Source: Escherichia coli
Lineage (GTDB): Bacteria > Pseudomonadota > Gammaproteobacteria > Enterobacterales > Enterobacteriaceae
Length of the DNA stretch: 64,000 bases
NCBI RefSeq assembly: GCF_965641715.1
Contig: NZ_OZ282454.1
Reading direction: 5' to 3' (one strand)
The stretch's first letter is position 1; each line of letters opens with the position of its first letter. Made by a program: the position numbers. Positions 54,501-63,500 of this stretch are shown here, piece after piece.

Positions 54501-57500
54501 TTTATCGGAAGGTAATATTTCTTGCGAATATTACATCCCCGTTATTTAGCATCGGATGCTTGAATTAAAAAATAAACAACACCATGAATTAAATATATTG
54601 AAATATAATGGTTGTTGCGGTGGTTTTATATTCGTGTTGTTGCTTGTATAATTATTAACATTGCAGTTAATAAGTTGGACGTAGTTAAAGCCTGGAGAAA
54701 TATGTATAAATACCCAAACAAAATAACATTAACAATCATTTCCACATTTGAAAACAAGCTAAACCCCAAAGCATTTATTATATTGCAGTTTGATTACTTC
54801 ATTGCATGGATAATGATATAGCTACCCAATGATATTAATTTGTGTTTTTTGAAATGAAGAAAGTGATCGTAAACTCTGTTGTTGAATATATTGAGCAATC
54901 CCTTGAATTATTTCGCGTGGATATTGATTGTTTGGTAAAATATTCTGGATATAGTCGACGGCAATTACAGCTTATATTTCGTGAGTATACTGGTATGCCT
55001 CTCGGTAAGTATATAAGATCACGAAGAATTTGTAGAAGTGCTTTGCTACTGCGACTAACAACACTTCCTTTATCTGAAATATCCAATCGGCTGTTTTATG
55101 ATTCACAACAAAGTTTCCAAAGAGAATTTAAAAAAAGCATTGGAATAACACCATTAAGTTACAGGAAAAAAAATGTGTGGGGAGGTGGAGTTGCTAAGTT
55201 CAATACTGATTGGCATTATGAACTATCATACTGCGGAGCGTTTTTTTTGGAAAAAATAAAACTATCAGGGACAAAGATTACATACAAAGAATGCATTCCT
55301 TTTTATGGGGGAGAGTCAAACTCCAAATGGGATATAATATCAGAATATGTTGATAAACATGGAGGTGAAATCATAATTGCGCATGATTTTAAAGCATGCC
55401 AGGAGCCTTCTGATAAAGTGCTTATAGATTCTTGGTTTTTTATGGATAAAAATGAATCAACAGTAAATAAAAATATCAATGGTGGATGGTATTGTCTATT
55501 TTATTTTTATGGTAGTAAAGAGGCATATCTACAAGCAATAAGTGCTCTCTATGTTCATTTATTATCACCATCGGGTTTATCCAGAGGGGAAGGCGTTGAT
55601 ATTGAAGTGATACGTAAGATAAATAATAACACATATGCCATTTATTACTATTTGCCAGTTGTTCTTTGCTCCTAAGGATTCCAAGTAAATACTTTTATGG
55701 TGGTCTTATGTAAACCATATCCTTTGATGAAGGATATATACTTTAGTGTTAATGATCTTTTCTATGAGCATTTGCATATATGATTTATACTATCTTGACA
55801 AGAAAACCATTTAAATTTATTTGTACGCTTGCTATTCTGATATTGGCAGTGATTATCCTCGTTTGGATGGTCAGAACTCCTACAATAATTGATATGCATT
55901 ATGTTTCTACACTAAGTAAAAAATACCCTATAATTTTTCTTATCAGACATGGGGAGCGCTGTGATCGTTCTTCCAATGTATGTCTATCCTATCCAACAGG
56001 AATTACGGAAAAAGGAACTTATAAAGTGCAAGAATATGGGAATGTATTTAATAAAATATTCTCTCCATATGTAATCTATGCTACCGATACGGTCAGAACT
56101 ATTCAGACTGCTAAATATTTCTCCGGAGGAGAAAAGCTGATTATTCCTGATATATATACGTGTAGTGATAATGCAACAAGTAAACTCAAGGGATATTCTT
56201 CTAAAAATAAAGTTACAGTTATTTTTACACATAACCATTGTTTATCTCGCATTGCAAAAAAAATAAATGGCTGGCACTTAAAATCAGACTATCTCGAAAC
56301 ACTAGTCTTACATCGTGAAAATGAAGAACTTATTCTAGATGGGATTATGCAACATGAACAATAAGCTTCCTGTTTAACTCAACTCAATAATAAATCAACT
56401 CATAGTCATGCTTGCTTTTTTTTGAAATTTTTTTATTTCTTTATGTCATGGCTGAACTTCTTGTTCAGGAGCGGGATATTAATGGCTTTGCTCCACTCAA
56501 CTGGTACAACGGGAAAGTCGTGTTCAACTCCGGATTCCTGTTGCTGGCCGACCACTATAACTTCCTGCCACGGGCATGCCGTCCACGCAGGGCCAGAACA
56601 AAAGGTAAGGTTGAGCGGATGGTGAAATACCTCAAGGAGAACTTCTTCGTCCGGTACCGCAGGTTCGACAGCTTCACTCATGTCAATCAACAACTGGAGC
56701 AATGGATAGCCGATGTGGCTGACAAACGGGAACTTCGCCAGTTCAAAGAAACGCCGGAACAGCGCTTCGCGCTGGAGCAGGAACATCTGCAGCCGTTACC
56801 GGATACGGACTTCGATACCAGTTACTTCGACATCCGCCATGTGTCCTGGGACAGCTATATCGAGGTTGGTGGTAATCGTTACAGCGTTCCCGAAGCGCTG
56901 TGTGGTCAGCCGGTATCGATACGAATATCGCTGGATGACGAGTTGCGGATCTACAGTAATGAGAAACTGGTGGCCTCACATCGTCTCTGTTCGGCATCGT
57001 CTGGCTGGCAGACAGTGCCGGAGCATCACGCCCTGCTCTGGCAGCAGGTCAGTCAGGTGGAACATCGGCCACTGAGTGCCTATGAGGAGCTGTTGTGATG
57101 CATGAGCTGGAAGTCCTGCTGAGTCGCCTGAAAATGGAGCATCTGAGTTATCACGTTGAAAGCCTGCTGGAACAGGCAGCTAAAAAAGTGCTGAACTACC
57201 GGGAGTTCCTGTGCATGGCGCTACAGCAGGAATGGAACGGCAGGCATCAGCGCGGTATGGAGTCCAGGCTGAAGCAGGCTCGTCTGCCGTGGGTCAAAAC
57301 GCTGGAGCAGTTCGACTTTACCTTCCAGCCGGGCATCGACCGTAAGGTTGTTCGGGAACTGGCTGGTCTGGCGTTCGTGGAGCGCAGCGAAAACGTGATC
57401 CTGCTGGGACCTCCTGGTGTCGGAAAAACGCATCTGGCCATAACTCTTGGCGTGAAAGCGGTGGATGCGGGACATCGGGTACTGTTTATGCCACTGGACA

Positions 57501-60500: not shown

Positions 60501-63500
60501 CCGGGTTCACAGGAGGCAGCAACGAGCAGCTGTTTAAATTCGGGAGGATAATTAGGGCAGCCTTTTCGCCTGCCGGGAGTCACATTTTTCTGCATATCTG
60601 ACACTTTGGTTCCCACTACTTATTTGGTGGACACCACTTTGTCTAATTCGTCAGATTCTGACCAGACGGTTCAGGCTGTACGCTTACCTACAAAAATTAC
60701 TCTCCGAATTACCTCCTGTGTCAGCGTTATCCGTGTTCGAACTTGCCGAATGGTTGCCCGGGATCGTGGGAATGAAAGAGGACGACATTACTCTCTTCAG
60801 CAGACAACCAGAACAGCAAAAAACGGAACATGACACAAACAGAAGACTTCGTAGTGGCTTTTACTGGCGCTTTTATTTTGCTTTTACCGCCCCTAGGGAT
60901 GTCCGTTCGCCAGACTTTTTCAGCCGGATGTTCATTTTAGCAGGCGATCCTGACCGTCAGCGTGAACTAAGCGAACTTCTCTTTGGCGAGCTTGAAGAAA
61001 CAGGTTTCTCCTCGCGGACATGGTTTGAACACGTTATTGATAAACTCACCATGGAAATGCTCTCCCAGGCAACTCCCGCACAGTGCCTAGGATTACTCCG
61101 CTTTATATTTATTAATGGCACAAAGATCTCCAGGTACTATCGACAGCGGGATGGAATCATGGGGCTGGAATCCGCTGGGTTGACAGAACTGGCGGACAGG
61201 CTTTTTCAACTTACACTTAATGCCACTCATAGGGGGGGATCGACTGTTTTAGCCATGCCCAGCAAGATCGGCAAACGTTCAACTGGGCCATGACGTATCT
61301 CCGTCATCTGCTCTGGCAAAATGGTCTGGCCGGTACGCGACCAGTACCACCGAATGAAAGGGTGCTAGGTAATGATGATTTAAGACATTTGTGTCAACAG
61401 GCTGCTGCATGGCTGGAAAATCCAGATAACCAAGAAGCCATTCTGGCGAACGGCGAACTGTCTGATTTGGTGTATGCCTGGCGGGAAATCAGCACCACCG
61501 AATCTGTTGCGACGTGGCTAACCTCAGTAACTGACAAGGATGATGTTTTTCTTGAGGTCTTGCTGCGGCTCCGTTATGACGGTATCCGGACTAATATTGG
61601 CCGTTATCAGGGATTGAAACTAAATACCTTGGCTGAATTCTTTGGCGGAGAAGAGTATATCCTGAAGAGATTAGATAATATTGAAGCTAAAGGGCATCTG
61701 ACTGAACTGACCAGTCAAGTGAGGAAAGCTATCGAACTCGACTCTCCAGACATTCCCCGATAGATCACTACGTCTGCTCAGGAAAGAGCAACTGAGAAAA
61801 CTGACTAAGCTAATGCAGATTGTACACTTCGCCATACACTGTCTCAAAGGCCCATAACGGGCCTTATTCTTATAAAATGAACAGAATCAGGCGCTAAACG
61901 CTTTTTCTTTATCAAAAGGAACACCTGCATACGCCAGTTCGCTCAGCAGCTTGCGTTTCCATCCACCATGTTCATCAAGCTCGGTATAAAGTACGCCTGC
62001 GAGATCGGAAGGTATTTCGATGTCACCCTTCTTGAGTACCAGTACTTTCCCGCGACCAAGTTTCCCCGCGAAATATCCGAGTTCATACAAGACATTTTGA
62101 CGTGCACGCAGTCGCGTGCTTTCAGATGCCAAGGCATTCCCGCTATCGTCAGGCGTCATCAGCACGATGGCAAAGCTGACATCTCCTGACTCCGCTTCAA
62201 ACTTCTCGATAACCGTCCTTGAGCCGTCAGGGCGTTCAGAAAGTATGATCTCCTCAAGCCCTACACGAGAGATAAAACGGGCAACAGATTGAAGGGCATC
62301 ATTATCATGGCCATGAACAATAAAAACTTTTCGGGAAACCGGACGTAGCACTGCTGGCTCAGGAGCGAACTGATTTTCCACATACAACTGGTAATCACGG
62401 ACGAATGGGACAAGTAATGATGAGGTAAACTTGCGGACAGATTCAATAACCCTGCGGTCGTAGAAAAATGTATGCCAGAAATTAAATGAAAAATTGTTAT
62501 CGATCGCCATTTTCTGTATCAGCAGCAACTTCAAGCCCAAAATATCAGCTGGTTCTTCAGGCCATTGCAGCACAGCGGAACCAGCCATGCTGGATTCAGT
62601 ATCTCCACTCCTGGCCAGAAAGGCATCAAGCTCAATATTGCGGGTCAGGCGTTCATTAACTGCCTGCAAGTTATCTGAGTTCAATAGCCGGGCCAGTTGT
62701 TTAAGAGGTTGCTGATAGTTCTGAACGTCAGCGCGCTGAAGATCGAATACGCAATTTTTAAGTGACTGAAAGATATCAATCGCCATCCTGTCCGCTCTCC
62801 TGTCTTTGTTGTTCTGCACTGTCCAGAATCTGTTGGCGCAGATTTTCTTTCATGTGTTCGATTAATGGACTGACCATAGGATTAGTGGCATAACCAGAAG
62901 CGCGTTCGTCCACCATGGAGTAGGCTTCCTGAATTGCGTTCTCAATGCTGCTAGGATCGTTAGCATCAAAACGAACATCATAACTTCCGTTTAAGGCCTC
63001 CGTTGCTCTCTCAACCTCTTTTAGCTGTTTCTGCATTTTGTCTAAACCTGTGATTTTGACGCCCATAACAACCTCCGGACTAAATGAGATGTACCAGCCT
63101 GTATAGATAGCACGCCGGAAGAATGGGGTAGTGGATATCAGTCAAATTCTCCGTAATTTCATTAAGTTCCGGTTTTACCTTTTTCGGATCTTATTAGTGT
63201 AGAAGAACGATTGTTGCGGTGAGGGGATTATTGCTTAGGAAGCAAAATTCAAAACTGACTAAGCCAGAAATAGCAACAACAAGATAAGGAAATTTTCCCC
63301 CTCAGCCCCTGCATGCCGTGAGGGGGAGCAACTACCCAACTACAGTTTTCATTTTATGATACGTCTTCACTAGGTAATACCTGTGAACTGACAGAGTCTT
63401 TACGGAGTGTATGGCGGACCTAAATTTGATCCCTGAAAACTGCCAGCGCTGCGAGGACGAAGAAAGTATTACGGCTAAAGCCGTAATACCTCCCCATCCA

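Follow-up and report, generated by a model that had tools for sequence, protein, structure and literature searches.

We found, in a 64,000-nucleotide stretch of Escherichia coli DNA (the window), a segment in which fragments of mobile elements are nested one into another. It lies on an IncF virulence plasmid of the AIDA-I/STb/EAST1 type from pig E. coli (ETEC), and the closest public plasmid to the window is pRHB38-C15_2. From left to right the stack comprises the flank of a phosphatase gene, a truncated IS21, the end of an IS911-family element, a truncated IS481-family element, ISEc8 and a truncated pifA. The matches to known elements are near-identical, ruling out chance for these identifications; the IS names rest on PGAP-labelled copies, the IS21 of S17-1 and NCBIfam profiles rather than on ISfinder references. 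A sequence-only reading of the window had described the nesting and its junctions, which stand, but had called the first fragment IS100 and begun it at 56455, neither of which does.

Interrupted IS21, IS911-family and IS481-family elements

The stack is preceded by a histidine-phosphatase-family gene (55780-56364, plus strand; Pfam His_Phos_1), annotated in CP057088.1 as lipopolysaccharide core heptose(II)-phosphate phosphatase and lying outside any IS. Its 3′ flank (56365-56505) is not IS sequence, there being no IS21 homology to the left of 56506. Up to 56499 this flank occurs in plasmid pRHB11-C13_2 without IS21 attached, and the six bases ACTGGT (56500-56505) separate the shared flank from the start of IS21. 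The stretch from 56455 to 56505 is therefore phosphatase-gene flank, present to 56499 in pRHB11-C13_2 without IS21, and not transposase-derived.

An internal fragment of IS21 follows (56506-57668, plus strand), corresponding to nt 682-1844 of the 2131-nt element. Its alignment with the S17-1 copy, which is of the RP4 type, spans nt 682-1847 (about 1.16 kb) at 99.06% identity; the window fragment is thus nearly the same as the IS21 of RP4/R68.45-type plasmids. It matches the NCBIfam profiles transpos_IS21 and IS21_help_AAA, and keeps 196 C-terminal codons of istA together with codons 1-191 of istB (265 in all). The IS100 of Yersinia belongs to the same IS21 family, but a PGAP-labelled IS100 copy aligns with the fragment only in three patches of 39-70 bp at 78.6-84.1% identity. 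The fragment retains neither terminus, and so is neither complete nor mobile. There is no IS end at the junction of the flank with IS21 nt 682 (56505/56506), and the remainder of the element (nt 1845-2131) was sought within the plasmid and not found.

As the sequence-only reading had it, the IS21-family fragment is cut at its 3′ side by an 86-bp IS911 end, the junction falling at 57668/57669. This piece (57669-57754, minus strand) is the last 86 bp of the right end (IRR) of an IS911-family element of the IS3 family, inserted in reverse orientation in istB. It starts with the terminal repeat TGAAGTGG and carries on the minus strand the last 25 codons and stop of orfB. The piece is 98.9% identical to the right end of the pRHB11-C13_2 copy, from whose OrfB its C-terminal peptide differs by one substitution, and 96.6% identical to the right end of another copy that PGAP labels as IS911-family.

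Adjoining the IS911 end, and inserted 86 bp inside it, is a third IS481-family copy (copy C; 57755-58245, plus strand), which represents nt 1-491 of a 1201-bp element and was identified by its ends and by identity to its siblings. Taken to 58246, it matches the two other copies in the window (100% identity to 52422-51931 and 99.8% to 40200-40691), the G at 58246 being assignable either to this element or to ISEc8. The inverted repeats of the element are TGTATTAG... at the left and ...CTAATACA at the right, and copy C keeps the left one only. Family membership is supported by the full copy A, which scores 289 bits against NCBIfam transpos_IS481 (cut-off 224) and has both HTH and rve domains. 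From its start at 57857 the transposase reading frame of copy C runs for 130 codons before the break, leaving the HTH domains alone (HTH_29). Nucleotides 492-1201 are missing; no such sequence adjoining IS911 was found in a search within the plasmid. The sibling IS481-family copies carry 7-bp duplications that are swapped between copies in this plasmid family.

ISEc8 and the pifA remnant

The break in copy C is made by a complete ISEc8 of the IS66 family (58246-60687, minus strand; 2442 bp), identified by its repeats, ORFs, NCBIfam matches and PGAP labels. Its termini, beginning GTAAGCG, are perfect 13-bp repeats, with GTAAGCGTACAGC at both ends (13/13 bases), and its three genes are all intact: tnpC (58283-59821), tnpB (59871-60218) and tnpA (60215-60616). 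NCBIfam scores are 460.7 bits for transpos_IS66 (cut-off 180), 120 for IS66_TnpB (50) and 94.6 for the IS66-like TnpA (74). The transposase is named 'IS66-like element ISEc8 family' by PGAP in every record, which is the basis of the name used here, and the copies in related plasmids differ from that in the window at 1-2 nt.

Simple insertions of ISEc8 have the same length, the same tnpA-tnpB-tnpC order and the same GTAAGCG... repeats as the window copy, but they also have 8-bp target duplications, which it lacks. As noticed earlier, the 8-mers on its two sides are unlike (GAAAAAGT at the left and CTACAAAA at the right); they agree at 3/8 positions, so there is no target duplication. The duplication is missing because the two flanks derive from different loci, the left being the IS481-family transposase gene and the right pifA from nt 1168; its absence reflects later rearrangement and not a different element. 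In pRHB38-C15_2 there are three identical ISEc8 copies in the same orientation. Copies 1 and 2 have perfect 8-bp duplications (AAATCGGA and AATCAGTC), and copy 3 has the same unlike pair as the window.

PifA is the phage T7 exclusion protein of the F plasmid and a KAP NTPase. The right flank of ISEc8 is the 3′ part of its gene, from nt 1168 (codon 390) to the stop (60688-61763, plus strand), which is 99.8% identical to the intact pifA of pRHB28-C15_2. That plasmid and pSE49-2444 both have an intact pifA of 747 amino acids with pifC upstream. The window covers positions 386-555 and 574-718 of the 720-position PADLOC PifA profile; with only 386-718 kept, the gene is a truncated remnant and a non-functional member. 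It is further split into two ORFs by a run of seven instead of eight G residues at about 61232-61238. Judged from its sequence, the phage-exclusion gene is inactivated. No match to pifC or to the 5′ half of pifA occurs anywhere in the 140.5-kb plasmid pRHB38-C15_2, which points to deletion rather than relocation.

Order of events and the right-hand junction

Related plasmids keep earlier states of the stack, which supports the earlier proposal that insertions came one after another and that deletion or recombination followed. Three F18 plasmids (L015-L017) carry IS21 nt 682-2131 in one piece, with nothing inserted at the IS911 site, and in all AIDA-type relatives IS21 stops at nt 1844. In pGD17-2 the stack of IS21, IS911 and IS481 is present without ISEc8, and its IS481 copy is complete to nt 1201. 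The left junction of ISEc8 with the IS481-family element is common to PEC41, pRHB27-C21_3, pRHB38-C13_2 and pRHB38-C15_2, with three distinct continuations on the right (those of pRHB38, PEC41 and pRHB27-C21_3). The right junction with pifA was found, besides the window, only in the two pRHB38 plasmids, which are from one farm's isolates.

In the order of events shown by this comparison, an IS21 copy beside the phosphatase gene first lost its initial 681 bp. An IS911-family element then entered istB at IS21 nt 1844/1845, a 1201-bp IS481-family element inserted 86 bp inside the right end of IS911, and ISEc8 inserted in the IS481-family transposase gene after nt 491. These four steps rest on the related plasmids, while the final one we infer: the DNA to the right of ISEc8 would have been lost, and the right end of ISEc8 would have come to lie against the middle of pifA in the RepFIB backbone. 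With this step the IS481-family element would have lost its remaining part and pifA, on the other side, its first 389 codons together with the neighboring pifC.

Serial nested insertions followed by a loss that probably came about through homologous recombination between two ISEc8 copies is the account we favor. A second, directly oriented ISEc8, lying in pifA with the duplication CTACAAAA and carried either by this molecule or by another plasmid, would have exchanged with the first by RecA-type recombination, leaving one hybrid ISEc8 with one flank from each parent. PEC41 offers a comparable case. It reads GAAAAAGT/ISEc8/AAATCGGA, that is, the left flank of copy 3 joined to the right flank of copy 1 at copy 1's own duplication; an exchange of ISEc8 with ISEc8 has thus taken place with this same copy. 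Recombination among IS copies is common in this plasmid family, as seen in the swapped duplications of the IS481-family copies and in an inversion of the aah-aidA segment that distinguishes sibling isolates. The SNPs of ISEc8 show no crossover point, since the copies differ at 0-2 sites.

The hypothetical parents would have joined pifA...CTACAAAA to the left end of ISEc8 (...GACGTCAGAACTACAAAA/GTAAGCGTACAGC), and the right end of ISEc8 to GAAAAAGTGGCTCG... leading into the IS481-family element (GCTGTACGCTTAC/GAAAAAGTGGCTCGTG for ISEc8 in an intact IS481 copy). A synthetic query of 1200 bp was assembled from the pifA 5′ side with the ISEc8 left end and the ISEc8 right end with the IS481 continuation. 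As a single piece, the parent junctions were found neither in PLSDB plasmids nor in 5,426 complete E. coli genomes, and the matches at 50% coverage were unrelated pairs of ISEc8 ends. Exact parent-junction patterns of 29-31 nt had 0 matches in JGI metagenome contigs. The absence of these junctions speaks against the recombination account, as does its need for two events, the second insertion and the exchange, where a deletion made by transposition needs one.

Such a deletion is the main alternative, and we regard it as possible but clearly the less probable of the two. From its site in the IS481-family element, ISEc8 would have transposed intramolecularly (in a one-ended or replicative manner), its right end taking pifA of the same plasmid as target. 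The DNA in between would have been removed, the original left flank GAAAAAGT kept, and the new target 8-mer CTACAAAA brought to the right side. This single event predicts exactly the flanks observed, and predicts that no parent with ISEc8 in pifA exists, in keeping with the searches above. It also fits the distribution of the junctions, the left being widespread and hence older, and the right confined to one farm's isolates. However, no adjacent deletion made by an IS66-family element is among our results, and the sole comparable event in the lineage that can be resolved, that of PEC41, is an exchange between pre-existing copies. To our knowledge no transposition chemistry or mechanism is established for the IS66 family; our literature search on the subject returned no mechanistic paper and one experimental study of an IS66 deletion. 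In that study the deletion needed both copies (PMC6778807). If a direct deletion by ISEc8 were the true history, the locus would be natural evidence on how IS66-family elements transpose.

The right junction might also have been made by illegitimate (non-homologous) end joining or by another element, ending by chance at the ISEc8 terminus. The oldest junction of the stack, that of the flank with IS21 nt 682, lacks an IS end and must be of such an origin, but at the right junction the break coincides exactly with the final base of the inverted repeat of ISEc8; this implicates ISEc8 itself, whether as a block of homology or through an active end, more than a random breakpoint, and makes the explanation improbable. 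Least probable of all, to the point of being negligible, is an assembly artefact that joined wrong flanks across identical 2.4-kb repeats: the plasmid does hold three identical ISEc8 copies, but the assembly contains neither pifC nor the 5′ half of pifA, both junctions recur in pRHB38-C13_2, pRHB38-C15_2 and the window, which differ by rearrangements and SNPs, the left junction is also in a Korean isolate, and, copies 1 and 2 being already matched, copy 3 would still lack a duplication however the six flanks were re-paired.

Parallels and meaning

Two published cases resemble this locus. In pAt15955 of Agrobacterium tumefaciens, a 270-kb deletion arises between two directly oriented IS66 copies, and the single IS66 that is left is flanked by duplications that do not match (PMC6778807). 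A single remaining IS66-family copy with unlike flanks is also the signature at 58246-60687; there, however, both parental copies were observed and removing one abolished the event, whereas here the pifA copy is inferred. In porcine ETEC and P1-like plasmids, IS-mediated rearrangements have been reconstructed from mismatched direct repeats, and partial IS nested inside other IS occur in a porcine ETEC plasmid sequence (PMC6906374). The logic is the same as ours, mismatched or reverse-complementary flanking repeats being taken to indicate that IS copies recombined with each other or transposed intramolecularly, but the elements are ISEc84, IS26 and Tn1722, with no ISEc8-pifA junction (PMC6906374). 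One literature match to 'ISEc8' was in fact to ISEc84.

Serial nested insertion followed by rearrangement is ordinary plasmid wear, an already-known kind of event with no novel system. The stack is a dead end in which ISEc8 is the sole intact element and the IS21, IS911 and IS481 pieces are immobile. Neither a new element nor a new mechanism is revealed, and the value of the analysis is mainly bookkeeping, including the correction of an IS name from IS100 to IS21. For the plasmid, an ISEc8 that is probably a recombination scar links the AIDA-I virulence island to the RepFIB backbone, and the PifA phage-exclusion gene is destroyed. The dated series of junctions is usable as a set of lineage markers for the AIDA-I and F18 plasmids of pig ETEC/STEC.

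Plasmid setting and the truncated elements left of ISEc8

The region at 55700-61900 matched pRHB38-C15_2 (CP057088.1), a 140.5-kb IncFIA/IncFIB plasmid of pig-farm E. coli, over its full length at ~100%, and the sibling plasmid pRHB38-C13_2 (CP055625.1) at 99.9%. The plasmid carries the genes aah-aidA (AIDA-I), STb and EAST1. The window differs from both records: its collinearity with CP057088.1 is limited to 40275-64000 (CP057088.1 114166-137881), and the remainder is rearranged, with 1-32752 and 34090-41406 corresponding in reverse to 81234-48483 and 48494-41178. One breakpoint falls within the IS481-family copy A, and the window ISEc8 differs from CP057088.1 at two bases. 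The window's plasmid is therefore a rearranged sibling, identical to neither record and the third variant of this plasmid family.

A histidine-phosphatase-family gene stops at 56364, and IS21-family homology begins at 56506, not at 56455 as the sequence-only reading had it; positions 56455-56499 occur in pRHB11-C13_2 without attached IS21, and are therefore flank. Six bases (ACTGGT, 56500-56505) separate IS21 nt 682 (56506) from position 56499, the last one in common with pRHB11-C13_2. Alignment to the 2131-bp IS21 of strain S17-1 starts at nt 682 with 99.06% identity, and true homology reaches its right limit at nt 1844 (57668). The fragment had been named IS100, a name rejected here since only patches of 39-70 bp align with an IS100 copy, at 79-84%; it is IS21. 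No IS end was found at the flank/IS21 junction, which is the oldest event of the stack, being common to the fetched AIDA-I and F18 relatives.

The istB gene of IS21 is broken at 57668/57669 by TGAAGTGGTCAAC..., the start of the 86-bp IS911 terminal fragment (57669-57754) that had been proposed to cut the upstream element. Two IS911-family copies have right ends that match it at 96.6% and 98.9% identity; on its minus strand it encodes the OrfB C-terminus with one substitution, and it represents the IRR end, pointing leftward. The same truncated IS21 runs unbroken to nt 2131 in three F18 plasmids, which preserve the empty site for the IS911-family insertion. Upstream of aah, at 45199-45285, is a second, more diverged (90.9%) copy of the 86-bp IS911-family terminus; it appears to be another IS remnant because no intact transposase gene is nearby.

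The IS481-family copies

The left end of a 1201-bp IS481-family element is matched without a difference from 57755 onward, so a third copy (C) does abut the IS911 end; full copies are A (40200-41400, plus strand) and B (51222-52422, minus strand). The element makes 7-bp duplications, seen at sibling copies as TGTTATA (pRHB38-C15_2) and ATTTATC (PEC41). The partner junction of copy C (right end, then CGTTATA and the remaining IS911) was in no fetched sequence.

The 7-bp flanks of the complete copies are unlike: TGTTATA/ATTTATC for A and ATTTATC/TATCAGA for B. The right flank of A pairs with the left flank of B, a pair intact round one PEC41 copy, and the right flank of B pairs with the left flank of the copy at CP057088.1 position 19226; this cross-pairing shows that the copies have swapped flanks through recombination. 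The aah-aidA segment (46181-51219) sits between inverted copies and has the opposite orientation in pRHB38-C13_2 (5707-10745 of locus L018), consistent with IS-mediated inversion between sibling isolates.

In F18 plasmids the tpx terminator hairpin is separated from GATAAATGCCC... by an unrelated 1020-bp ISEc18-like IS481-family element (2792-3811 in the F18 locus L015), whose transposase shares only 25% identity with its counterpart in the window's element and whose terminal repeats are different. In the AIDA-I plasmids, both boundaries of this ISEc18-like element are occupied, to the nucleotide, by ends of the window's element (window 52422/52423; CP057088.1 20426/20427).

ISEc8 and its two flanks

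As had been read, copy C is interrupted after codon 130 by a complete IS66-family element, ISEc8, of 2442 bp (58246-60687). Its terminal repeats match perfectly over 13 bp, and tnpA, tnpB and tnpC are all intact; of the IS481-family transposase only the HTH domains remain. In pGD17-2 the same stack of truncated IS21, truncated IS911 and IS481 is found without ISEc8, its IS481 copy extending to nt 1201 and holding an IS2 near nt 454-459; this plasmid represents the state before ISEc8. The IS481/ISEc8 left junction recurs in four public plasmids, and three kinds of sequence follow on the right: truncated pifA in the two pRHB38 plasmids, an HTH-TolC-HlyD region in PEC41, and, in pRHB27-C21_3, a Tn1721-type terminal repeat that follows ISEc8 nt 719. 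This 38-bp repeat (GGGGGAACCGCAGAATTCGG...) adjoins ISEc8 nt 719 at 10264/10265 of the pRHB27-C21_3 locus L014, and also nt 82 of an IS481-family copy of pRHB38-C15_2 (CP057088.1 103039/103040), which suggests that deletions ran outward from a Tn1721-type transposon end.

The 8-mers flanking the window ISEc8 do differ, GAAAAAGT on the left and CTACAAAA on the right, and its two sides come from different loci, an IS481-family transposase gene and pifA. The other two ISEc8 copies of pRHB38-C15_2 have an identical sequence and point the same way, each lying within a perfect 8-bp duplication (AAATCGGA and AATCAGTC). To the right of the window ISEc8, pifA sequence starts at nt 1168 of the gene (codon 390); the remnant matches positions 386-718 of the 720 in the PADLOC PifA profile, and is 99.8% identical to the intact pifA of pRHB28-C15_2, where pifC lies upstream. 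Neither pifC nor the 5′ half of pifA is present anywhere in the plasmid; the DNA was therefore lost, not relocated. At 61232-61238 the G8 run of intact pifA is one base shorter (G7) in the remnant. This frameshift divides the remnant into ORFs 60718-61293 and 61290-61763, and could be either a genuine mutation or a sequencing error in the homopolymer.

Origin of the ISEc8/pifA junction

PEC41 has the order GAAAAAGT, ISEc8, AAATCGGA, joining the left flank of copy 3 (the pRHB38-C15_2 counterpart of the window ISEc8) to the right flank of copy 1, at copy 1's own duplication. This pairing is direct evidence for recombination of the window-type ISEc8 with another ISEc8 copy. Copies 3 and 1 are direct repeats bracketing ~8.3 kb (window 60688 to the end, on to CP057088.1 position 4804) that holds the pifA remnant, the RepFIB replication gene and an integrase gene, and the PEC41 arrangement is that expected after deletion of this segment. 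We favour, with moderate confidence, as the origin of the last junction homologous recombination between the window ISEc8 and a second copy that would have been located in pifA, because of the PEC41 exchange, the swapped IS481-family duplications and aah-aidA inversion in the same plasmid family, and the experimental precedent of pAt15955, where a 270-kb deletion produced by two directly oriented IS66 copies leaves a single IS66 flanked by duplications that differ (PMC6778807).

The main rival, to which we give perhaps one chance in a few, is a deletion made by ISEc8 itself through intramolecular transposition into pifA; it takes one event fewer than recombination, and it fits the finding of neither parental junction in PLSDB, complete E. 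coli genomes or JGI metagenomes. Misassembly is very improbable, as the six ISEc8 flanks cannot be re-paired in any way that gives back a duplication, and the same junctions reappear in independent assemblies.

Only the element name (IS21, not IS100) and the start coordinate of the original observation needed correction; the rest is confirmed, and the interpretation as successive insertions followed by deletions or recombination is supported. The region is an ordinary IS mosaic carried by a virulence plasmid, built of known elements with known behaviour; in practice its only consequences are that pifA is inactivated and that its junctions provide lineage markers.
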